Shown: positions 7,133-20,125 of the stretch, piece by piece | Layout: each line of letters begins with the position of its first letter | Position numbering within the stretch: position 1 is the first letter of the stretch | NCBI GenBank assembly: GCA_050248915.1 | Contig: JBFWRL010000077.1 | Location: forward strand, 1-25,375 | Reading direction: 5' to 3' | Source of the DNA: Candidatus Sericytochromatia bacterium | GTDB lineage: Bacteria > Cyanobacteriota > Sericytochromatia > UBA7694 | DNA length: 25,375 bases | Notes under the pieces: model-generated | What the model was told of the DNA's origin: nothing | Seen by the model: the letters and a program-made list of their open reading frames with translations, nothing else | The model's database searches: none | Translations under genes and position numbers: made by a program

Positions 7133-8407
7133 TTAAACTTTTTGATACAAACCTTTTGCGCGAATATAGCCCGCCACCTCAGGCAGCAGAGCTTGCTCCC
7201 AGCCTGATTGACCTGTTGCTACCGCCTGCCGGATCTGGGTCGAAGCCACGGGCAAATGCAGGGCCAAATACCTGCAACAATCAGCCCAATGTTTAGCCGC
7301 CGCCTGGCCAGCCTCAGAAAAGACCAATTCACTTTCGCGCCCACAGACCCAGAGCTGGGTATTTTGGGCAAAAAGACGTTCCAATCCCTCCTGCAATCCG
7401 CCGGAGAGCGTCGTATAATAACGCGGCTCAAAGACCCGGCGGTAGAGATCTTCGCCGCAGACAAAATCCACGCGCGCAGCGCCACCCGCCCGCCTGAATA
7501 ATTCGGCGGTTTGATACAGCGCGGGGGTGCAAGTCAGAGCCACAGGCCAGGGCTGAAAGGCCAACATCGCCAAACGATGGGCCAAATCGGTACTGGCGGC
7601 CTGGCCTTTATCGGCATTGCTGAGGCTGATTTCCAGCACTGGCAGTAATTCTGGGGCCTGTTTGAGCACAGCTTGGGGCAAGGCCAAATGGGCCTGTGTA
7701 AGGGGATTAAAGGCCCCTTTGTGCAAAAGTAGATTTTTGCCACGCAGCGCTTCCAATGGGCGTACCGCTTGCAAAGAACCCGCTTGGGGCAAAAACAGCA
7801 ATAACTCCGCGTGACCCGCTTGCAGCAATTCACAGGCTTTGAGGGTATTCTCAAAGGCTGAGAGATGCCAGCCCTGCCAGAGATCCATCTGAAATCCCGC
7901 AGGCAAAACCAAATGCAAAGGTGACAAGTCATTGTTTTCAGCCAATTGGCAAAGCAATTGCACCCCCACTTGACCCAGGCCAAATTGCTGCTCCAGCCTT
8001 GAAACCGCAGGCAAACGCAGGTGAATGCTCCAGCCCCGGCCATCAGACAGGGCCAGCGCCACCCAGACATGGTGATCGCCACGGATCTCGGTATCCGAGG
8101 CCACAACGCCACTCAAAGCCAACGAAAAAAAATGGTTCTGACTGTGTAAATTCTGCCGGGCCCAATTTTCAACCGTCTCACAGGCCACGGAACGGGCCTG
8201 TTGACCATAACGCAAAAGCTGGGCCGCTTGGGCATAAGTGCTGTATCCCGCCCAAAGGGTTGAAGAGGCACCGGGGGCACTTTGTAACAAAGTCTGTACC
8301 CAAGACCCTGTGCCCACCTCTTCGATCACACCCTGCCAAGGGGAATCATGCAAACAGAGCAGACCCTTCTGCAGAGCCAAAATTCGGTTTTCAAGCGAAT
8401 CTAACAT
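7133..8407 (-). CDS. Fusion protein: CinA C-terminal-like (PncC-type NMN deamidase) domain plus a NadD-like nicotinate/nicotinamide-nucleotide adenylyltransferase domain
   Basis: The N-terminal half (EEVGTGSWVQTLLQSAPGASSTLWAGYSTYAQAAQ...LSGVVAS...HVWVALALSDGRG) parallels the CinA-C/PncC core (ESCTGGW...AGSSAWFERGFVTYSNEAK...ISGIAGP...TVWFAFA). The C-terminal half (LLLHKGAFNPLTQAHLAL...FVCGEDL...ASTQIRQAV...IRAKGLY) parallels NadD (GGTFDPVHYGHL...ISATIIRERL...QQGLY), but the H-x-G-H motif reads T-Q-A-H. Confidence 0.55.
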   Translation of the reverse strand: MLDSLENRILALQKGLLCLHDSPWQGVIEEVGTGSWVQTLLQSAPGASSTLWAGYSTYAQAAQLLRYGQQARSVACETVENWARQNLHSQNHFFSLALSGVVASDTEIRGDHHVWVALALSDGRGWSIHLRLPAVSRLEQQFGLGQVGVQLLCQLAENNDLSPLHLVLPAGFQMDLWQGWHLSAFENTLKACELLQAGHAELLLFLPQAGSLQAVRPLEALRGKNLLLHKGAFNPLTQAHLALPQAVLKQAPELLPVLEISLSNADKGQAASTDLAHRLAMLAFQPWPVALTCTPALYQTAELFRRAGGAARVDFVCGEDLYRRVFEPRYYTTLSGGLQEGLERLFAQNTQLWVCGRESELVFSEAGQAAAKHWADCCRYLALHLPVASTQIRQAVATGQSGWEQALLPEVAGYIRAKGLYQKV

Positions 8408-8411
8408 GGAA

Positions 8412-9509
8412 TTAAACCTGGCTTTCCTGTTGCAATCCTGTCGATGCCGAGACAGATTCTGGGGGCAAGAACATAACCTTGAGTTCGGGACACTGGCTGA
8501 ATTTCCAGATCTTGCCGTCGATATAATAATGGAACAGGGTCAACATACTAAAAGGGGCAAAGAGCAGATAAAAAGTGGGCTGAGAATAGCCAAAGACCTC
8601 GATCACGCCCGCAATCAGGCCATAGAGCAAAGCCGCTCCCAGCCAGCGCAGGGCCACGTGGCGAATCTGGGGAAAGCGCCGCTGCTGATACACAGCCACA
8701 AAGCCATGGTACTGGGCATTGTGGTAGGCCGTTTCGAGGGCCTCTGCCACCAAAAAAGGCACGGCTGCCACAACAAAGATACAAAAATGGGTGAGCAGGG
8801 CCATGGCCATCACCAGCAATTTGGGCAAATTGAGGGCCTGTTTGGCACTGGCCAGATGCAATTGGCGCAGCACCAAAATGCCAAAGGCCATAAAACCAGC
8901 GGCCACGGCGGTATTGCCCAGCCATTCGGGCACAACCGGAAACCAGCCAAAATGGGGGCCGTAAATCGTCAGGGCCGTGATCGGCTCATCGCTGAGCTCG
9001 ACATAGTCGTAGACCACACAGGAGAGCAAAGATATCTGAATACACCAGGCATCGAGCCGGTGATCCAAGAGTCGTTCGGGTTCGTTGAGACCATGATACA
9101 AGCGCACAAAGCCCAAATGCTGCCTGACAATATGCCAAGAGCCATAAAGTGAGACCAGCCCAATCGCCCAGGGCTCCATGCCACTGGGCACAAACAAAAA
9201 TCCCGAGAGCAAAAACAGGGCCAGGCCCCAGGTATAGAGATGGGGGTGGCGCTTAAATTCATCGGGGTCGGCATGGGTGCGCGAAAAGGTCTGAAAAATA
9301 TGCGGCAGATCGAGAAAGGTGGTGAAAACAAAGTAGGTGATCAACACCGACATGCCGGTCGGATGGTAACCCAGATAGCGCAGCCCCTCATAAAAACCCC
9401 AAAAGACAAAACAGAGCAGACCTGAACCAACAAAGAGGGTCAGGTCATAGCGGGCGCTGACCAGCCAGCGGGAGCGAAAGGTCAGGCGGGGAGGGGCCGT
9501 CGTGGACAT
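8412..9509 (-). CDS. Polytopic membrane protein of unknown function with His-containing motifs (WHIVRQH, HNAQYHG, FHYY); translationally coupled to the next gene (4-nt gap)
   Basis: The product has about 8 hydrophobic segments. A GAGGT Shine-Dalgarno lies 5 nt before the ATG at 9509. No family was recognised from sequence. Confidence 0.45.
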   Translation of the reverse strand: MSTTAPPRLTFRSRWLVSARYDLTLFVGSGLLCFVFWGFYEGLRYLGYHPTGMSVLITYFVFTTFLDLPHIFQTFSRTHADPDEFKRHPHLYTWGLALFLLSGFLFVPSGMEPWAIGLVSLYGSWHIVRQHLGFVRLYHGLNEPERLLDHRLDAWCIQISLLSCVVYDYVELSDEPITALTIYGPHFGWFPVVPEWLGNTAVAAGFMAFGILVLRQLHLASAKQALNLPKLLVMAMALLTHFCIFVVAAVPFLVAEALETAYHNAQYHGFVAVYQQRRFPQIRHVALRWLGAALLYGLIAGVIEVFGYSQPTFYLLFAPFSMLTLFHYYIDGKIWKFSQCPELKVMFLPPESVSASTGLQQESQV

Positions 9510-9519
9510 GGATTACCTC

Positions 9520-9560
9520 GTTTAAACAAAAAGGCTGCACTCACTCAAGAGTACAGCCAA
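9520..9560 (-). terminator. Rho-independent terminator or attenuator hairpin downstream of the Gly/Pro-rich gene, immediately upstream of the membrane-protein gene's Shine-Dalgarno
   Basis: The minus strand reads GGCTGTACTC-TTGAGT-GAGTGCAGCC, a 10-bp stem with one G:U pair and a 6-nt loop, followed by TTTTTGTTT. Confidence 0.5.
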
Positions 9561-9586: not shown

Positions 9587-10468
9587 TTAATTGGATTTGG
9601 GTTTGTGGGAGGCAACGAGGTTAAAACCAGCCAGGAATTCTTGGCCGACAAAGCTCTCTTTGACCTGTTTGCCGGTCCAAGCAGCGCCCCGGTACATGCC
9701 GTAACCGACGGCAGCGACACCACCGACAGCCACGCCAGCGGCTTTGGCGGTCAGTTCCAGACCTGCCAAGGGAGCGTAAACAATCATGCCAGCGGCACCT
9801 TCAGCAGACTGCGCCATGCCGTTGACCATTGTGCCCATGCCCTGGCCCATATTGACAAAGCCATCACCCATCTGTTGACCAGGGGTCGTGCCTTCGTAAA
9901 CCACTTTGCCGCCCGTTAAGGCCACAGCGGTGCGGCCCACACCTTCTAAAGCACCAGCGGGAGCATAAACCACGGCTTTGCCTGCGCCGTAGAGGGTTTG
10001 GCCCATGCCCTGAGCTTGGGTGACTTGGCCACCCCAGAAATGTTCAAAAGAACCTGCAAATTTATCGCTAAAACGGGGACGACCAGCGGGTTGATTGTTG
10101 ATTGGGCTGGCCACAGGCGGCACAAAGGGATCAGAGAAAACAGGCGCGCCACCATTGGGATTGCCCACGGGAGCACCGGGATAAGTGCCGGGTTTGGTCG
10201 GAATTGGGAAAAAGGGTTGGGGAGCAGCAGCCGGACCGCCCATAAAATATTCGTCTTGACCAACTTTGACAAAGTGAATTTCTTCTTTGGGAACACGGGG
10301 AGAGACATTCAGACGGCCGGTATCAAATTTCATGTGGGCGACATCGCGCTGAATTTGGGTATAGCGATCGGTATTGCCCCGCGCAAGGCTCTGCACCACA
10401 TTGGGTGTATATCTGAACTGGACACCTGCGTCCATTTGAGTGGGTCTGTAAGCGGCTACGGCTGTCAT
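9587..10468 (-). CDS. Hypothetical Gly/Pro/Ala-rich protein (293 aa) with an internal VYAP-x-AG-LE repeat
   Basis: A good Shine-Dalgarno (GGAAGGAAAAAGACA-ATG) precedes the start. The middle is Pro-rich (PFFPIPTKPGTYPGAPVGNPNGGAPV) and the C-terminal half is Gly/Ala-rich with the repeat KAVVYAPAGALEGVG / GMIVYAPLAGLELTA. No family was recognised. Confidence 0.5.
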   Translation of the reverse strand: MTAVAAYRPTQMDAGVQFRYTPNVVQSLARGNTDRYTQIQRDVAHMKFDTGRLNVSPRVPKEEIHFVKVGQDEYFMGGPAAAPQPFFPIPTKPGTYPGAPVGNPNGGAPVFSDPFVPPVASPINNQPAGRPRFSDKFAGSFEHFWGGQVTQAQGMGQTLYGAGKAVVYAPAGALEGVGRTAVALTGGKVVYEGTTPGQQMGDGFVNMGQGMGTMVNGMAQSAEGAAGMIVYAPLAGLELTAKAAGVAVGGVAAVGYGMYRGAAWTGKQVKESFVGQEFLAGFNLVASHKPKSN

Positions 10469-12583: not shown

Positions 12584-15500
12584 TCAAAAGGCCTGGGCCA
12601 AAAAGCTGCGGCCCGCAAAGGTCTGAATGCGCTGCTGCCAGCGGGGCAGATCATAGCTTGCCCGCAAATACTCTCTCACAGCTCTGCCACTGTGAGAAAG
12701 CTGGGTCAAGGGCTGACCAAAAGCCTTGCGCAAGAGCCAAGCGAGTTGCAAAGGGTCATTCAACACAGCCTGTTCTGCAAAAGGGCGCTCTAAAAAAGGA
12801 AATTGACTTGCAGCAATCAGCTTACAACCAGCGGCTTGGGCTGCCAAAGCCCACAGTCCATCGCAGGCCGGATCCACTTCAATAAACACCTGAGAACCGG
12901 TATACAAACCCGGCAAATTGTGGGGGCCCAACTCTTCTTGAACAAAGGTCAGGGCGGGAATTTGCTCGGGGTCAAACCCCTGATTTTCCAACCAGGCCAT
13001 GACCTGTTCGATTGCCGAATCAAAACTTTGCATCAGGGGTTTGATCACGAGGTTGACGGGTTCGGGCTCGGCAAAGGTCTGAAGGTAGGCCTTCAACAAG
13101 TGCTGCCAAACCGGCTCAGAATCAGAAGTTGAAGAAAAATCAAGACAGGCAAAAAAACAGAAACGCCCCTGCGACTCCTCTAAAACCAAGGGAGAAGCCA
13201 TGGGTGAAAAAACATCAAAATCCACAGCCGGGGGCAAATACAGCAAGGCCTGTTCAGACCACCCCAGGGCCCTTAAAGCCAAACCTTGATCTGGATGGGC
13301 ATAAAAGACTGCGGCCACAGCAGCCGGATCAGGCAGCATCTGGGCTGGGGTTTGCAGCCAAACCCAGGCCGAGGTACCTGACCAGGGTGCCTGGGTCTGA
13401 AGTTGAAAACGGGTTTGGGCAGCGACAGGTACAAATTGCAAAAGTGCACTGGAATCAGGCACAGGGGCAAAGAACAGCGCTGGCTCAGGCCAAAAAACCC
13501 GCAGGGGGCGTTTTTCAAGCTCAGTCTCAGCCAAATTCAAACGCAAATACTGCTCCAAGCTCAACCCCCGCTCCCAGGCGTGGCCCAGATAGGCCTTAAA
13601 CTTGAGCTGCTGCCCCGTCTGCAAACATTGCGATAGCAGGTTTTGCAAACCGGGCAAACAGGGTTCTATTGCAGCGGGGATCGGCAATTCGCTGAGTTCA
13701 GGCCAGTGACCGGGCTGTTCAAGCGCGCTCTGCCAAGCGGCCTGGGCCTGAGCTGCAGCATCTCTGAGCGCGGGCTGCTGATTGCAGAGCCCGCCAATCT
13801 CAATGCGAATGCGCTCTGCCATGGCTTGCCAGGAATAAGCTTCCGCCTCTTTGCGGGCCGACCGACCTTTTTGCGCAATCAGCTCAGGTTCTGCGGCAAT
13901 CTGACGTAAACACTGGGCCAAAGCAGCCACATCCACCTCGTGATAATAAGGATAAAAAGGAGTCAGGCCAATATCCCCGAGGCTCTTGCCCAATTCAAAC
14001 GCGGTCCAGGTGGGCAGATACCAGGCTGAATCAGAAGAACTGAATTCGGGGGCTGGGCCCGCTTCGGGCACCACCACCGGCAAGCCACAGGCCATGGCTT
14101 CGAGAATGGGCAGTCCAAAGCCTTCGCCACGATAGGGATGAACATAGACATCACAGGCCCGGTAAAGTGCTGCCAAGTCTTGCTCAGAGAGATCGGAACG
14201 GGTAATTAGGTGCAACGCAGGAGCCGCTGGGTTTTCGCGAAAAAAGGCCAGGGGCTCCGCCAAAGAACCCGTGGAATAGACCCCCTGATCGCCAAATCCT
14301 TTGATCACCAAGGCCACATCATCAGCCGCACTGAAGGCCTGGGCATAGGCATTTAAAAGCAGATCAATGCCTTTGCGCTGAATCAGCCCCCCGACAAATA
14401 AAAAAACCGTTTTTTTGCGCTGGGGCAAAGGCCATTGGGGCCCATCGGGGCAATAGAGGGTTGTATCCACCCCATTTGGAATCACCCGGATGCGTTCGGG
14501 CACAAGTCCCGAATGCTCAAAGCTGCGAGCCACAAAGGCCGAAGGCACCCAGACCTGATCCAGAGCGGCATTAAATGTTTGCACCCAGCTTTCAGGCAAA
14601 ACCCCGTGTTCCCAGGGCAAAATATTGACCCACTTGCCCTGTTGGGGTGGCGAGAGCCGGGGTGGCCAACGATGGCTGATCAGCACATCGGGCCATTGCC
14701 AGTGATTGTTCAAATCCCCCGGCGGCTCAGACTCGGCAAATTCGGGGGGGTGAAAAGGCAATGTAGTGAAATAAAGAGAGGGATCTGTCTGTAATAATTC
14801 GAGCAAACGGCGGTTGATTCTGGCCAAACTGTGGTGAGACTGGATCGCACCTTCCCAGAGCAGATAGCCCTCCCGGCGCGGCTCCTGGGCAGCTGCAAAG
14901 GCAGCTGGGTGTTTGTGCCAGATCAGGCGCTCCAAAGCATGAAAAATCTCAACACTCTCCAAAGCCATCATGTGTCGCTGAGCCAGATCCCGCCCCGTTT
15001 GCACTTGGGCCAAGGCCTGTTCGGGCTGACTTTCCCCCAAGAGGGCGGCTCCGTGCAGGCGAAAGGGAATTTCCAGTGGGCAAGCGGCTTCGGCGGCAGC
15101 ATAGGCCTTTAAAAGCGCCGGGCCGTCTTGGAGAGCGGTTAAGGCCTGCAAATAGAGTTGAAAAAAGGGGGCCAACGGCGCCTCAGCCAGCACAGACTCC
15201 GCTTGTGCTCGCAGTTCGGGCCAACGCCCCAAGCCCTGAAGACACTCCAATTCAATCAATTTCAAAGAGAGTTCCAGCGCCTGTGGGGGCGGATACCAAA
15301 CGGACAAAGAGACATAAATTTGCTCTTGGGCCACCAACAGAGGCGGAAAATCCATCAGCGAAAAAGTTGAGCCTTTTAAGGCGGCCAAATGGTGCAGCGC
15401 CAGCCCCCATTGCTGTTGCTTCCAGGCCCAAACCAGGGCTTGTAGGGCCTGCAAGCGGGGGGGCAATTCAGCCAGACATTGATGCGCGGCCTGCAAGAGC

Positions 15501-16627
15501 GGCCCTGCTGCGGTCAGATTTAAGGGGTGAAAAGCCGCGCGCACATAATTGACCACCAGCCCGGAATAATAGCGCTGATCGCGCCCCCAAAGCGGGTCTT
15601 TGAGTAGATCCGGCAAAAGTGTCAAAGCCAGTGGATTCTCGGCTTGAGTCAGCGTAAGTGCCTCTGTTTCCAGTCTGAGCAAAGGTGATGAGGCATTGGC
15701 CTGCAAACGCGTTTGCACCCGCTGGTTGAGTTGTTCAGATTTTTCTTTCAGTTCCGCTTGTAGAGACCGAAAACAGGCCTGTAACGAAAAATTCGGCATG
15801 AGGGTCTGCACTGCCTGCAGAATCTGGCGGCGGCGGGGCGGATCCGCCTCCAAAGTGGCCAAGACAGTCCCCAATTGACCAGGGGCAAAATTCAGATAGT
15901 GTTCCCCCGCCTGTAAAGCAGGGGGTAACCCGTCAAAGCCTTCGGGGCAAAGCAAGACTGCGCCACAGGCCAAGCTCTCCAACAACCGTGCCGTCAAGCC
16001 AGGGTCGTCACAGATCACGTAGCGGCTGCGCTGGAAATAAAAAGGCAAAAAAGCGGGGGTGGTGGCAATAAAATAGCGGCATTTCCAAGGCGCGGGCAGG
16101 GATTCATAAGCGGGCAAAGCAGGCGAGTAGGGATTGCTGGCAATATAGATCAGGTCATAGAGCGGTTCTGGCTCTGCCAGCGGATGGTGCAAAGCGGGTT
16201 CAAGGCCCTGCCAGCGGGTCTGCAAAACCGGCAAACCCAGGCGCGAAAAAAGCGCAAAGGCCTTTTCAGACAGAGCCACCAGACCATCATAAAGCGCCAA
16301 AACCCGACGGATATCCGCCTCAGACAACCCCTTGGGCAGATCCGCAAAAGCGATCAATGGCAACCCACTTTGAAAGCAATGGCGGGGAGGCAAACGTTTG
16401 TGGGGCTCCAAGAGAAAGAGCCATTCCGCCTCAGGAAAATGGACAGAGCAAAGCGCATTTAAGGCCGGCAATTGTGTGCTGACCTGCGTTCCCGGCAGTT
16501 CATAATTAAAGGCCTTGCTCTCCCAAGGGGTGTCAGACAATTCCAGCGCTCGCTCATCTGCCAAAGTCCGGCGCAAGGCCTGATCCAATCCCTGGCGGAA
16601 GTCGGGCCCCCAGAGTATTTTCACCAA
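12584..16627 (-). CDS. Giant multidomain glycosyltransferase (1347 aa): N-terminal GT-B C-half-like domain, helical/TPR-like region, complete GT4 domain, and a C-terminal third GT-B-like domain
   Basis: The GT4 signature is KKTVFLFVGGLIQRKGIDLL...CDVYVHPYRGEGFGLPILEAMACGLPVVV. The N-terminal region has ESLACGAVLLCPEGFDGL and the C-terminal region has FFACLDFSS...NLVIKP...AAGCKLIAAS. The start is TTG at 16627 or GTG at 16624, directly after the upstream TAA. Confidence 0.8.
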   Translation of the reverse strand: MVKILWGPDFRQGLDQALRRTLADERALELSDTPWESKAFNYELPGTQVSTQLPALNALCSVHFPEAEWLFLLEPHKRLPPRHCFQSGLPLIAFADLPKGLSEADIRRVLALYDGLVALSEKAFALFSRLGLPVLQTRWQGLEPALHHPLAEPEPLYDLIYIASNPYSPALPAYESLPAPWKCRYFIATTPAFLPFYFQRSRYVICDDPGLTARLLESLACGAVLLCPEGFDGLPPALQAGEHYLNFAPGQLGTVLATLEADPPRRRQILQAVQTLMPNFSLQACFRSLQAELKEKSEQLNQRVQTRLQANASSPLLRLETEALTLTQAENPLALTLLPDLLKDPLWGRDQRYYSGLVVNYVRAAFHPLNLTAAGPLLQAAHQCLAELPPRLQALQALVWAWKQQQWGLALHHLAALKGSTFSLMDFPPLLVAQEQIYVSLSVWYPPPQALELSLKLIELECLQGLGRWPELRAQAESVLAEAPLAPFFQLYLQALTALQDGPALLKAYAAAEAACPLEIPFRLHGAALLGESQPEQALAQVQTGRDLAQRHMMALESVEIFHALERLIWHKHPAAFAAAQEPRREGYLLWEGAIQSHHSLARINRRLLELLQTDPSLYFTTLPFHPPEFAESEPPGDLNNHWQWPDVLISHRWPPRLSPPQQGKWVNILPWEHGVLPESWVQTFNAALDQVWVPSAFVARSFEHSGLVPERIRVIPNGVDTTLYCPDGPQWPLPQRKKTVFLFVGGLIQRKGIDLLLNAYAQAFSAADDVALVIKGFGDQGVYSTGSLAEPLAFFRENPAAPALHLITRSDLSEQDLAALYRACDVYVHPYRGEGFGLPILEAMACGLPVVVPEAGPAPEFSSSDSAWYLPTWTAFELGKSLGDIGLTPFYPYYHEVDVAALAQCLRQIAAEPELIAQKGRSARKEAEAYSWQAMAERIRIEIGGLCNQQPALRDAAAQAQAAWQSALEQPGHWPELSELPIPAAIEPCLPGLQNLLSQCLQTGQQLKFKAYLGHAWERGLSLEQYLRLNLAETELEKRPLRVFWPEPALFFAPVPDSSALLQFVPVAAQTRFQLQTQAPWSGTSAWVWLQTPAQMLPDPAAVAAVFYAHPDQGLALRALGWSEQALLYLPPAVDFDVFSPMASPLVLEESQGRFCFFACLDFSSTSDSEPVWQHLLKAYLQTFAEPEPVNLVIKPLMQSFDSAIEQVMAWLENQGFDPEQIPALTFVQEELGPHNLPGLYTGSQVFIEVDPACDGLWALAAQAAGCKLIAASQFPFLERPFAEQAVLNDPLQLAWLLRKAFGQPLTQLSHSGRAVREYLRASYDLPRWQQRIQTFAGRSFLAQAF

Positions 16628-17947
16628 TTATAACCAGACGATGCGGGCCCGCGCGGGCTGACAATCGCGCAGGGCATTGCGGGTATCCACCAAAAGAGGC
16701 AGTTGATCGCAGAACATCTGGTGATCTACCCCTTGCCGGTGGTGGGTCACCACCACGCCGCAGGCATAAGCCGAGAGATCGGTCAAAGAGACCGAATGCA
16801 GGATCTGCCCTTCGAGCTCAAATTGGGGAATATACGGATCAAAATACTCCACTTGGGCCCCTTTCGACCAGAGCAATTGAATCAGCTCCAAGGCCGGTGA
16901 TTCACGCATATCATCGACATCAGACTTATACGCCACGCCAATCACCAGCACTTTGCTGCCTTTGAGTGGCAGGCCATGATCGTTGAGGGCCTCCATGATC
17001 AATTGCAGCACCTCGCGGGGCATGGCTGAATTGATCTGCTCTGCCAAGGCCATAAAACGCGGCTCATAGCCATGTAAGCGGGATTTCCAAATCAAATAAT
17101 GGGGATCGAGGGGAATACAGTGGCCGCCAATGCCGGGTCCGGGTAAAAATTTCATAAAGCCAAAAGGTTTGGTGGCAGCTGCATCAATCACTTCCCAGAC
17201 ATCCACCCCCAAGACCCGACAAATGCCTGCAAATTCATTCACCAAGGCAATATTGACACTGCGAAAGGTATTTTCCAAAATTTTAGCGGCCTCCGCTACC
17301 CGAGCCGAAGAGACCGAGTGAACCTGTCCCATCACCTGCCGATACAAGGCTGCGGCGACTTCGGTACAGGCGGGGGTGACTCCCCCCACTACTTTGGGAA
17401 TTTGAGCAACCTGAAACTGTTGATTGCCCGGATCTATCCGCTCGGGTGAAAAGGCCAATAAAAAGTCTTGACCGACTTTATAAGCGGTTTTTTCAAACAT
17501 CGGCAAGAGAATTTCGTCGGTGGTGCCGGGATACGTTGTGCTCTCCAAGATGACCAATTGACCGGGTCTGAGTATGTTGACAATTTCTTCAGCCGCCGCC
17601 AAAATATACGAAATATCGGGTTCTTTGCTCTTGCGCAAAGGGGTGGGCACACAGATAATCAGGGCATCTGCGTCTTTTAAATGGGAAAAATCGCTGCTAA
17701 AGACCGTGCTGGGCAGGGTGTTTAAACGGGCCACAAAATCGTCGGGGATATCTTGAATATACGATTTTCCTGCCTGTAGAGCCTGAATTTTACGGGCATC
17801 CACATCGATCCCTGTCACGGGAAAGCCTTCCCGAGAAAAGGCCTCCAAAAGTGGCAAGCCGACATATCCCAGCCCAATCACACCAATTCGGGTGGTTCGC
17901 TGCGCCAGCGTGTTTAAAAATTTTGCAACAAGGGATGTATTTGACAT
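16628..17947 (-). CDS. Nucleotide-sugar dehydrogenase of the UDP-N-acetyl-D-hexosamine dehydrogenase family (WbpA/TviB/WecC-like)
   Basis: The start MSNTS is at 17947. The Rossmann motif is IGVIGLGYVGLPL, and the product also contains ICVPTPL and the family-typical ERIDPGN and C-terminal region. The ORF-track start at 18040 is probably an upstream extension. Confidence 0.85.
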   Translation of the reverse strand: MSNTSLVAKFLNTLAQRTTRIGVIGLGYVGLPLLEAFSREGFPVTGIDVDARKIQALQAGKSYIQDIPDDFVARLNTLPSTVFSSDFSHLKDADALIICVPTPLRKSKEPDISYILAAAEEIVNILRPGQLVILESTTYPGTTDEILLPMFEKTAYKVGQDFLLAFSPERIDPGNQQFQVAQIPKVVGGVTPACTEVAAALYRQVMGQVHSVSSARVAEAAKILENTFRSVNIALVNEFAGICRVLGVDVWEVIDAAATKPFGFMKFLPGPGIGGHCIPLDPHYLIWKSRLHGYEPRFMALAEQINSAMPREVLQLIMEALNDHGLPLKGSKVLVIGVAYKSDVDDMRESPALELIQLLWSKGAQVEYFDPYIPQFELEGQILHSVSLTDLSAYACGVVVTHHRQGVDHQMFCDQLPLLVDTRNALRDCQPARARIVWL

Positions 17948-17954
17948 GGATTTT

Positions 17955-17960
17955 ATTATA
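17955..17960 (-). promoter_or_regulatory. Perfect -10 hexamer TATAAT exactly 7 nt upstream of the dehydrogenase ATG; candidate leaderless transcript
   Basis: The minus strand reads caagagTATAATaaaatccATG. There is no convincing -35. Confidence 0.35.
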
Positions 17961-18023
17961 CTCTTGATCCTGGGTCGCTGCAGTTGCTCAGACTCAAACC
18001 CAAGAAAGGCCCCAAATTGAGAT

Positions 18024-18656
18024 ATGTCAGCCTGCCCCAACTGTCAAAATTCTGAACAGAAACGCGAACCCACGGCTTACGGAGATTGGACCCGCTGTCT
18101 CAAATGTCGGGCCTACTACGCCCCCACCCCCAACAAAACCATGCCTGCAGAACCAAGTGCCCAAAACGCTTTAAACATCTTTCAAACCATCCAGAATGAA
18201 ACGGGTCAGCACCTCTCCTGGCAAGCCCCCTCTCCCAAAATTTATCTTTTGACAGGGGGGATCACAGCCCTGTTTGGCGGCCTTTTTCTACTGGGTGGCG
18301 TCTGGCTGGGCCATTGGAGTTATGCCCTGATCGGCCTCTTATTTGGGGGGCTGATGCTCTGGATCGGCGGAGATCAATTGCGCAAAGGCCTGAATACCCA
18401 CCAGCTCAGCCTGAGCAGCAGCGGAAAAATCCAGGTAAAAACCGGCCCTTGGCCCCATCAGGGCTACCCACTGGCAGTGGAACCCAGTGAGCCACTGTTT
18501 TGCAGGGTTTTTCGGCAAGAGCAACTTTCGCTGTTTGAGCTTTACACGCGTCAAAACGGCAAAGCCAAACGTGTCACCCCCGCTGAGTTGGCAAGCAAAG
18601 AACAGGCCTTTTGGCTGCTCTATCGCTGCAAAAGACCATCACAGCCCCCCATTTAA
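18024..18656 (+). CDS. Zn-ribbon (CPNC...CLKC) membrane protein with 2 TM segments, unknown function
   Basis: N-terminal C-x2-C-x17-C-x2-C, two hydrophobic helices rich in GxxxG (LLTGGITALFGGLFLLGGVWLG; LIGLLFGGLMLWIGG) and a soluble C-terminal domain. Its stop shares a TTAA tetramer with the convergent gene's stop. Confidence 0.5.
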   Translation: MSACPNCQNSEQKREPTAYGDWTRCLKCRAYYAPTPNKTMPAEPSAQNALNIFQTIQNETGQHLSWQAPSPKIYLLTGGITALFGGLFLLGGVWLGHWSYALIGLLFGGLMLWIGGDQLRKGLNTHQLSLSSSGKIQVKTGPWPHQGYPLAVEPSEPLFCRVFRQEQLSLFELYTRQNGKAKRVTPAELASKEQAFWLLYRCKRPSQPPI

Positions 18657-20125
18657 CGGCGTTGGCAGCGCCAAACGGGCAGGGCATTGCTGATGCCTTT
18701 GAGAAACGCCGAACGGGCCTCAAAAGCATAACCTGATTCACTTAAAATCACCTCGGTGGTGGGGTTGAAGACGGTCTCACTCACCCAGATTTCTCCCGCT
18801 TCAGCGAGTCCCTGAATGCGAGCGGCCAAATTGACGGTCTGCCCAAAGAAATCAAGACGTTCATTGGCATTGACTGCCAAAACCGGCCCTGTGTGCAAAC
18901 CCACCTTGAGCCCCAATTGTACTTCTGCGCTGGGCTGATTGAGGGCCTCAATGGCTTCCACCATTTCCAAGGCTGCCCGCAAACCATCAGCAGGGCTAGA
19001 AAAGGTCGCCATAATCGCATCTCCAATGGTTTTGACCACCGAACCAGCATGGTTACGGGTGCAGGCCGTGAGCAAATCAAAATGACGCTGCACCAAGGCA
19101 TAAGCCTGATAATCTCCGGTTTGTTCATACATCGCTGTTGAGCCCTTGAGATCGGTAAACATCACCGTTTGACTGCCGATCGAGAGGCGCAGGTCGGGAT
19201 CCAATTGCTGAATTTTATAGATTTCGCGAAAGGTCTGGTGATTGAGCAATGCTTTGGCACTCAAAAAAGGCAGCAACTGACTGGGATATTGCTGCAAAAC
19301 CGCCACGATGGCCTCAAAATCAAATTTCCAAAAGGTCAAAATGCGGGTCGTGGCACTGCAATTGTGAATCCGCACACTGACCTCCCCGGCCGGCAAGTGG
19401 CGCTCATTTTCAACAAAGCCCATTTCGCTGATATCCGTATCCACGACCACAGGCAGTTCGGCCAAGTCGCTGCCGGTTTTGAGCCAAAATTGGCTGTGAC
19501 TTTGCAAATTGATCACCCGGTAAACACAGTTGGGTTCGGCCTTCAGCGGCAAACTGACCCGCTCATTGGGGTCCACCCAATAGAGCCCCAAACACAGGGA
19601 CTGCATCAGCGGCAGCAATTGCGGCGCATGTTTCATGCTGGCCGAAAAATAGCTGCGATAATAATTTTCGAGACTGGCCATGGGAGCCACCTGTTCTGAA
19701 AAGTCGGCAATACCCGGATGCAATCCAAAGGTCACTTCCACCTGTTGATCCAGAGAAAAATTGACGTCTTTATTGCAAACAGGACAAAAGACATGGCCCT
19801 CTTTTAAACCGTTGATACTCCCATAGGTGTATTCGGTGCTGCCACAACCCAGACAGACAATCGTCCAATTCAGGTCAAAGAGGCCAATCCGGGTGCTGAA
19901 AAGCAGCAAATCGAGCAAACTAGAAAGATCTAAATCGTAATCCTGCGCCAATTGCAAAGGGTTCAAACGCAGCAATTGCCAAGGGCTGAGCTGAGGCAAA
20001 ATCTCACCAAAACGCTGAACCAAGCCCACCGGCAATTGGGGATAATGTTCCAAGGCCTTGAGCTTGCGTTGCAGGGTTTCATTGAACACGCTGAGACACC
20101 TCATTTGAATCAGTTTTGCCTGCAC
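18653..20125 (-). CDS. Class III adenylate/guanylate cyclase with an N-terminal domain containing a Zn-ribbon
   Basis: The C-terminal cyclase homology domain reads VMFTDLKGSTAMYE..GDAIMATF...GLHTGPV...DFFGQTVNLAARIQ. The N-terminal region has CLGCGS-x18-CPVCNKD. The start is ambiguous: GTG at 20125 or ATG (M8) at 20104. Confidence 0.8.
   Translation of the reverse strand: MQAKLIQMRCLSVFNETLQRKLKALEHYPQLPVGLVQRFGEILPQLSPWQLLRLNPLQLAQDYDLDLSSLLDLLLFSTRIGLFDLNWTIVCLGCGSTEYTYGSINGLKEGHVFCPVCNKDVNFSLDQQVEVTFGLHPGIADFSEQVAPMASLENYYRSYFSASMKHAPQLLPLMQSLCLGLYWVDPNERVSLPLKAEPNCVYRVINLQSHSQFWLKTGSDLAELPVVVDTDISEMGFVENERHLPAGEVSVRIHNCSATTRILTFWKFDFEAIVAVLQQYPSQLLPFLSAKALLNHQTFREIYKIQQLDPDLRLSIGSQTVMFTDLKGSTAMYEQTGDYQAYALVQRHFDLLTACTRNHAGSVVKTIGDAIMATFSSPADGLRAALEMVEAIEALNQPSAEVQLGLKVGLHTGPVLAVNANERLDFFGQTVNLAARIQGLAEAGEIWVSETVFNPTTEVILSESGYAFEARSAFLKGISNALPVWRCQRR

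Follow-up and report, generated by a model that had tools for sequence, protein, structure and literature searches.

The nicotinamide mononucleotide (NMN) deamidases of the PncC/CinA_C family (PF02464), represented by the Agrobacterium tumefaciens enzyme (2a9s), Escherichia coli YgaD, and Thermus thermophilus CinA (4ct8/4uoc), and the adenylyltransferases NadD and eukaryotic-type NMNAT1-3 (PF01467, TIGR00482) are the described proteins closest to the two halves of the protein considered here. That protein is encoded at positions 7133–8407, on the minus strand, of a 25,375-nucleotide stretch of DNA from a Candidatus Sericytochromatia bacterium (contig JBFWRL010000077.1, assembly GCA_050248915.1), and we refer to this whole stretch as the window. 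Sericytochromatia are the nonphotosynthetic sister class of the oxygenic cyanobacteria. Fusing an NMNAT- or PncC-type domain to a second module of the nicotinamide adenine dinucleotide (NAD) cycle is an established habit, seen in NadM-Nudix (Synechocystis, Francisella, and KVP40 NatV), in NadR (HTH-NMNAT-RNK), and in CinA (COG1058-PncC), and the window protein follows the same logic. In CinA, the PncC domain is joined to an N-terminal COG1058/MocF pyrophosphatase, whereas in the window protein an adenylyltransferase is attached at the C-terminal side; compared with NadD and NMNAT1-3, to which it is about 14–24% identical, the window protein carries about 220 extra N-terminal residues. In Shewanella oneidensis, NMN derived from NadV is reportedly routed via PncC to NadD and NadE.

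The closest experimental analogue of the N-terminal domain is K61Q, an engineered E. coli PncC that serves as the probe of an NMN biosensor (PMC8231969) and that, like the window protein, has Gln at the position of the general-base Lys. K61Q is inactive, binds NMN with a dissociation constant (Kd) of about 91–125 µM, and does not significantly bind nicotinic acid mononucleotide (NaMN) (PMC8231969). It was obtained, however, by engineering one substitution into a dimeric, stand-alone enzyme, whereas the Gln of the window protein is natural, invariant, and combined with a Ser-to-Val replacement and other changes, and binding by the window protein is a prediction.

We suggest, with a probability of roughly 60%, that the window gene encodes an active adenylyltransferase of the NadD/NMNAT type, in which the N-terminal domain, of the PncC fold, binds a pyridine mononucleotide without deamidating it. 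Both domain families, the fusion habit of NAD-salvage modules, and an automatic label combining NadD and PncC on one homolog were known already; what is new is the absence of the catalytic Ser/Lys dyad from the PncC-like half across a large superfamily that no curated model covers, certain members of which partner NAMPT in viral contigs. Automatic annotation, or a naive reading of the domains, would credit Sericytochromatia with a salvage route through NMN deamidation, for which the catalytic residues give no support, and their NAD metabolism would be mismodeled as a consequence. The window gene offers a well-conserved entry to this two-domain superfamily.

Architecture of the protein and extent of its family

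As called, the open reading frame (ORF) begins with ATG and comprises 424 codons and a stop; 22 homologs are full length, and an AlphaFold2 model of the product has a predicted local distance difference test (pLDDT) score of 90.3 and a predicted template modeling (pTM) score of 0.88. All coordinates given below for parts of this gene are on the minus strand. The N-terminal domain, with the PncC/CinA_C fold and predicted to be nondeamidating, spans about residues 14–160 (7928–8368), and the C-terminal domain, of the NadD/eukaryotic-type NMNAT kind, spans residues 223–424 (7136–7741). Between them lies a family-specific bridging segment, residues 161–222 (7742–7927), with β-strands at 173–179, 202–208, and 211–215 and a helix at 184–196. 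The bridge falls outside the aligned extent of both the CinA match (residues 29–157) and the NadD match (from about residue 223), and it holds a near-universal D175 together with the family-invariant R216 and R222.

The homologs come from the named protein database, which yielded 22 clusters at 47–92% identity, all of them 420–463 residues long and, where named, all from Sericytochromatia or Blackallbacteria. The gene occurs in nine species-representative genomes, the same class throughout, and its best match, 93% identical, is from a metagenome-assembled genome of Candidatus Blackallbacteria. When the named database was searched with a diverse superfamily alignment, nothing beyond the window clade was found; the clade is confined to Sericytochromatia.

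The window protein and its 22 homologs make up a family alignment of 23 sequences, which we split into N-half and C-half profiles for searches of the Protein Data Bank. The N-half profile matched A. tumefaciens CinA/PncC (2a9s, E = 0.001) and T. thermophilus CinA, and the C-half profile matched only NadD/NMNAT structures (Staphylococcus aureus NadD, 3.9e-7; Enterococcus faecium NadD, 2.5e-6; human NMNAT3, 3.3e-6). In the model, the N-half adopts the three-dimensional fold of CinA_C, and the C-half a Rossmann fold of the NadD/NMNAT type, apart from the PPAT, NadM/NadR, and cytidylyltransferase subfamilies. One homolog (P0010) has a precomputed PF02464 match. An earlier note on this DNA, made from the sequence without database searches, had paired a CinA_C-like domain with a NadD-like adenylyltransferase, and that pairing is borne out: profiles and folds place both halves inside the named superfamilies, with both PF02464 and PF01467 recovered, below threshold, by single-sequence scans.

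To the superfamily at large we applied a hidden Markov model (HMM) of the family alignment, searched exhaustively against 1.84 billion representatives at 50% identity. It returned 2966 proteins at E ≤ 1e-3 and 824 at E ≤ 1e-10, and those of the best 150 matches that span both domains, 142 in number, are the superfamily representatives referred to below. We found no model covering the two-domain architecture in Pfam, NCBIfam, PHROG, or PADLOC, and no description of it in the literature; the "NMNAT-C" protein of Synechococcus elongatus (PMC13036487) and NARP3 (PMC13464706) were considered as prior descriptions and set aside, both having other architectures. Automatic labels on homologs read "NadD / NMN deamidase PncC" in IMG (for one homolog) and "CinA family protein" or "hypothetical" at NCBI.

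Catalytic residues of the two halves

Over the critical blocks, the N-half aligns with 2a9s without gaps, anchored by identical residues (E30, T33, and G34; G46 and S48; Y58). The counterpart of PncC block P-I (AESCTGG) is EEVGTGSW (residues 29–36; 8300–8323), in which E30, T33, and G34 are kept. The position of the nucleophilic Ser (S31 in A. tumefaciens, S29 in E. coli) is occupied by Val31 (8315–8317); 21 of the 23 family members have Val here, one has Ala and one Ser, and none of the 142 superfamily representatives has Ser. The general-base Lys (K63 in A. tumefaciens, K61 in E. coli, K301 in T. thermophilus), described as "absolutely conserved" in PncC, is replaced in all 23 sequences by Gln (Gln63; 8219–8221), and among the superfamily representatives this position is Ser in 66, Gln in 58, Arg in three, and Lys in none. 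The N-domain of the family has no invariant Lys at any position.

The residues that clamp the 5′-phosphate of NMN (A. tumefaciens G46, S48, Y58, and R145) are kept, and all four are invariant in the family. G46 and S48, within GASSTL (residues 46–51; 8255–8272), are the counterparts of residues whose backbone amides bind the phosphate in PncC (T. thermophilus G284 and S286; PMC5384747, PMC4246079); Y58, the phosphate-binding Tyr, opens the block YAQAAQ (residues 58–63; 8219–8236); and R137 (7997–7999) is the counterpart of the Arg that forms a salt bridge with the phosphate (T. thermophilus R377). The invariant pair S99-G100 (8108–8113) corresponds to A. tumefaciens T105-G106 and T. thermophilus T340-G341; in the latter, the backbone amide of G341 is part of the oxyanion site. 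PMC5384747 lists 17 PncC positions as the most conserved. Of these, the family retains E30, T33, G46, S48, Y58, G106 (as G100), and R145 (as R137), which include all phosphate-contacting residues, along with a tolerated change of T105 to S99. It loses S31, C32 (to Gly), G35, K63, M88 (to W82), and A108-G109-P110 (to V-A-S), and it lacks an equivalent of G120; the ribose loop GIAGP of PncC reads GVVAS.

Mutants altered at the same positions have been published. The A. tumefaciens CinA variants S31A, K63A, Y58A, and R145A have no detectable activity (PMC5384747), and E. coli PncC S29A and K61Q are fully inactive, with NMN binding that persists at a Kd of 37–125 µM (PMC8231969). In the alternative, water-attack mechanism put forward for T. 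thermophilus CinA, the Lys is again the base (PMC4246079). Since the Ser/Lys dyad is replaced and published mutants at these positions are inactive, we predict that deamidase activity is probably absent from the N-domain; the pattern of kept and lost residues is probably that of a domain that still binds its ligand and no longer performs the reaction.

This bears directly on the possibility that the protein is bifunctional, with an N-domain that deamidates NMN to NaMN and passes the product to a NaMN-specific NadD domain along a NadE-dependent route. Both folds are right for such an enzyme, the phosphate-binding residues and the oxyanion Gly are retained, one homolog bears the corresponding IMG label, and S. 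oneidensis pairs a functional PncC with NadV, as the work of Galeazzi et al. 2011 is summarized in PMC3855486. The replacement of both dyad residues, across family and superfamily alike, nevertheless matches point mutants that are inactive (PMC5384747, PMC8231969), and the Lys is needed in both of the mechanisms that have been proposed (PMC4246079). We therefore consider the bifunctional enzyme highly improbable, and the channeling of NMN deamidation into NaMN adenylylation that the earlier note had envisaged is not sustained.

The adenylyltransferase half carries nucleotidyltransferase motif I, G-x-F-N-P-x-T-x-A-H (HKGAFNPLTQAHLAL; residues 229–243, 7679–7723). It reads G231-A-F-N-P-L-T237-Q-A239-H240, which places (H/T)-x-x-H within GxFxPxH/T, and K230, G231, F233, N234, P235, T237, A239, and H240 are invariant in the 23 family sequences. 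HMM alignments equate GAFNPLTQAH with GQFNPIHTAH of S. aureus NadD, GTFNPVHLAH of E. faecium NadD, and GSFNPITNMH of human NMNAT1/3; among solved, characterized enzymes there are examples both of an initial Thr in the motif and of a third residue other than Gly (HTAH, HLAH, TNMH). Among the 142 superfamily representatives, TxAH is the commonest form (26), with HxGH in 10 and TxGH in three. The earlier note was correct that the motif reads TQAH and raised the possibility of a noncatalytic role on that account. With T237, A239, and H240 unvarying among the 23 sequences, TxAH the commonest form in the superfamily, and the variants present in characterized enzymes, we read TQAH as no mark of decay; invariance of this kind is the opposite of decay.

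The remaining motifs of this half point the same way. In LSNADKG (residues 262–268; 7604–7624), N264, D266, and K267 are invariant, K267 aligning with the first Lys of the SPLKK segment of S. aureus NadD. DFVCGEDL (residues 314–321; 7445–7468) is the "hhhGxD" motif of NadD, and its G318 and D320 are invariant in the family and retained by every clade with an intact C-domain. Y330-Y331 of PRYY (residues 328–331; 7415–7426), likewise invariant, align with the W-Y pair of S. aureus NadD, which presumably stacks against the pyridine ring. Motif II, ASTQIRQ (residues 388–394; 7226–7246), is retained as an ISSTxxR-like sequence, as had been noticed at the outset: it reads V-A388-S-T-Q-I-R393, the sole change being the first Ser to Ala, with A388 and R393 invariant, S389 nearly so (Ala in two members), and position 390 always Ser or Thr. 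On these grounds the C-terminal half is probably intact as an adenylyltransferase.

The opposing view would hold that both domains are catalytically inert and that the protein serves as a pseudoenzyme, with a regulatory or sensory role toward NAD metabolites. The departure from the textbook HxGH, the Ala in place of the first Ser of ISST, the subthreshold scores against every curated family, and the real decay of the C-domain in a related clade could all be cited for it. We think it very unlikely, given that all alignable NadD/NMNAT hallmarks are invariant in the window clade, that Thr, Ala, and Met at the motif positions are known from active enzymes, and that the NMNAT slot beside NAMPT is filled, in other clades, by proteins bearing this motif. 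To judge by the residues, the suspicion of lost catalysis fits the CinA-like domain rather than the adenylyltransferase.

If the protein is an active adenylyltransferase with a nondeamidating N-domain, its C-terminal domain would catalyze the conversion of NMN and/or NaMN plus ATP to NAD or nicotinic acid adenine dinucleotide plus pyrophosphate, and the enzyme would be monofunctional. The N-terminal domain, its dyad lost and its phosphate clamp kept, would be a nonhydrolyzing nucleotide-binding module, packed rigidly against the transferase via the family-specific bridge, with a role in substrate capture or allosteric sensing and possibly as a dimerization scaffold too. NMN is weakly favored as ligand and substrate, because the natural Gln mirrors the NMN-selective K61Q and because related clades are linked to NAMPT. 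Tentatively, we would go further and imagine the CinA-like domain as a natural, nonhydrolyzing NMN receptor that feeds the fused adenylyltransferase or senses for it; these proteins might then represent an unrecognized, widespread class of NMNAT, distributed over hundreds of 50%-identity bacterial clusters and NARP2-like phage NAMPT/Nudix modules. If the N-domain is indeed a natural NMN-binding module, it would be a ready-made scaffold for NMN biosensors.

Superfamily hallmarks and linkage to NAMPT

The N-domain has gained two His residues relative to PncC. H113 (8069–8071) has no PncC counterpart, aligning with A. tumefaciens P118, and H129 (8021–8023) is a second hallmark of the superfamily; both are invariant in the diverse alignment. 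Near-universal among the 142 representatives are E30 (139), G32 (141), Y58 (141), H113 (126), and H129 (134). Full C-domain motifs are found in several clades, among them one from WOR-1 (TxGH), one that is short and AT-rich (HxxH or TxAH), and one marked by an "ENRK" motif. A further clade, of about 470 residues and recognizable by "AEIGAGQEV..." (P0034–P0040, P0186–P0304; here the AEIGAG clade), comprises more than 8000 clusters at E ≤ 1e-20 from Verrucomicrobia, Limisphaerales, and others. Its members have the same two-domain architecture and have mostly lost H240 (to Asn, Thr, or Ser), GxD, and SSTxxR, and the N-domain hallmarks persist. They are labeled "hypothetical" or, by NCBI, "TonB-dependent receptor," and the latter looks like a misannotation; at the loci of this clade (L017, L018), no conserved gene context was seen.

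The residues retained in the AEIGAG clade hint that the N-domain has a role of its own, possibly a catalytic one, and a different catalytic activity of this domain is the main rival to the explanation we prefer. The substrate would be a pyridine or ADP-ribose-type nucleotide, acted on by His113 and His129, possibly with Glu30 and perhaps with help from a metal or from activated water; the protein would then be an undescribed two-step enzyme. H113, H129, E30, and Y58 are the most conserved N-domain positions across the superfamily; they persist despite the decay of the C-domain, and therefore the function of the N-domain would be independent of adenylyl transfer. Such a site is not known from any CinA-fold enzyme, however, and the conservation of the His residues could equally reflect ligand binding or a domain interface. 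We regard this alternative as unlikely.

Our preference for an adenylyltransferase with a mononucleotide-binding N-domain draws also on gene linkage in a distant clade. P0128 (locus L015) is 23% identical to the window protein and shares its TxAH motif and its Gln at position 63. A divergent NrtR-type regulator flanks it on one side and a NadV/NAMPT gene on the other, followed in turn by an AAA_28 gene; the Pfam family AAA_28 includes the RNK domain of NadR. We gathered 55 further loci of the P0128 clade and call well flanked those whose sequence extends 3 kb or more to each side. A NAMPT homolog is present in the flanks of 10 of 11 viral-contig loci (nine of nine if well flanked) and of five of 44 metagenomic loci (four of 14 if well flanked), often 45–320 bp downstream of the two-domain gene. 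A Pfam scan of 131 neighboring ORFs ranked NAPRTase/NAMPT_N (11/10) and NUDIX (7) at the top. NAD synthetase is missing from the families listed, 25 of the 46 matched, and this absence of NadE from the enriched neighbors listed for the NAMPT-linked clade is a further point against the bifunctional route.

NAMPT together with an NMNAT, and in some cases Nudix, is the published logic of NARP2 (bioRxiv 10.1101/2024.02.11.579819). The distant-clade loci resemble phage modules of this type, with the CinA-like/NadD-type NMNAT standing where KVP40 has its NMNAT-Nudix fusion. By analogy, the distant-clade proteins would fill the NMNAT slot of the amidated route from NMN to NAD, for which no deamidase is needed. 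Members that lie beside NAMPT and Nudix in large viral contigs are relevant to the reconstitution of NAD+ by phage in the face of NAD-depleting defenses; a PADLOC scan gave no defense-system match.

Other observations concern the short clade. It adjoins NAMPT in large viral contigs (IMG/VR, L063–L073, up to 482 kb) and at L021, L023, L027, L029, L041, and L015, and Nudix genes, separate from it, are often found close by, PARP-domain genes occasionally. In BFVD, an uncultured Caudovirales phage contributes a relative with both domains (A0A6J5RR79, E = 3.8e-16). A tblastn search of 50,697 phage records found no match for P0083 or P0060 of the short AT-rich clade, nor did PHROGs; the signal for a phage origin of this clade comes from the IMG/VR contigs and BFVD only.

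Several of our own results weigh against an active adenylyltransferase with a mononucleotide-binding N-domain. Single-sequence scans stay below threshold for all three curated families: CinA PF02464 scores 16.4 bits against a gathering threshold of 23.5 (residues 30–123), CTP_transf_like PF01467 scores 16.2 bits against 21 (residues 231–283), and TIGR00482 scores 37.9 bits against a cutoff of 112.45. Motif II has A-S-T where NadD has S-S-T. H113 and H129, with E30, form a near-universal set that is not found in PncC and that is kept where the C-domain of the AEIGAG clade is degenerate. Finally, the linkage to NAMPT is known from the distant clade only: no NAMPT was found in the flanks of the 14 Sericytochromatia loci (L001–L014) or in the window, and the feature that marks a NARP2-type module, NAMPT nearby on a phage genome, belongs to the distant clade, the window gene and its own clade having a chromosomal context.

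Chromosomal setting of the window gene

Within the window there are no NAD-related neighbors of the gene. Across Sericytochromatia it occurs in differing chromosomal contexts, which fits the expectation for a stand-alone metabolic gene. Immediately upstream, on the same strand, is a gene for a 365-residue, multipass, His-rich membrane protein (8412–9509), whose stop lies 4 nucleotides before the ATG of the fusion gene and which has no Pfam or NCBIfam match. Its motifs HIFQTFSRTH, WHIVRQH, YHNAQYH, and LFHYY recall the boxes of membrane di-iron desaturases and hydroxylases. This neighbor is conserved only in close relatives (at least 67% identity; for example, L001) and is absent beside distant members; more distant members of the family have FTCD or ferrochelatase as neighbors. 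Inference of function from an operon was therefore rejected for the window gene, there being no conserved operon beyond close relatives.

Promoter and terminator scans performed at chance level. A strong terminator-like hairpin on the minus strand (9533–9558), just upstream of the membrane-protein gene, has a 10-bp stem with six GC pairs and a T-run, and it suggests that, in the window lineage, the fusion gene is transcribed as a unit with the membrane-protein gene.

The other neighbors were noted in passing. On the minus strand at 5549–6958 is a gene for a 469-residue protein with MVP_shoulder (E = 4.6e-9) and SPFH/Band_7 (E = 6.5e-8) matches and no NCBIfam match, which, to judge from these domains, is a bacterial protein with a shoulder domain like that of the major vault protein. 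A 293-residue, Gly/Ala/Pro-rich protein (9587–10468, minus strand), with no Pfam or NCBIfam match, is syntenic with a 296-residue ORF of L001, flanked by a beta-lactamase-family gene and the gene for the membrane protein. Farther along, a 1347-residue protein (12584–16627, minus strand) contains GT4-type glycosyltransferase domains, including PF20706 "GT4-conflict" (E = 5.5e-11), and is followed by a UDP-glucose/GDP-mannose dehydrogenase (16628–18040) and an adenylate/guanylate cyclase with DUF5939 (18653–20125), an order shared by L001.

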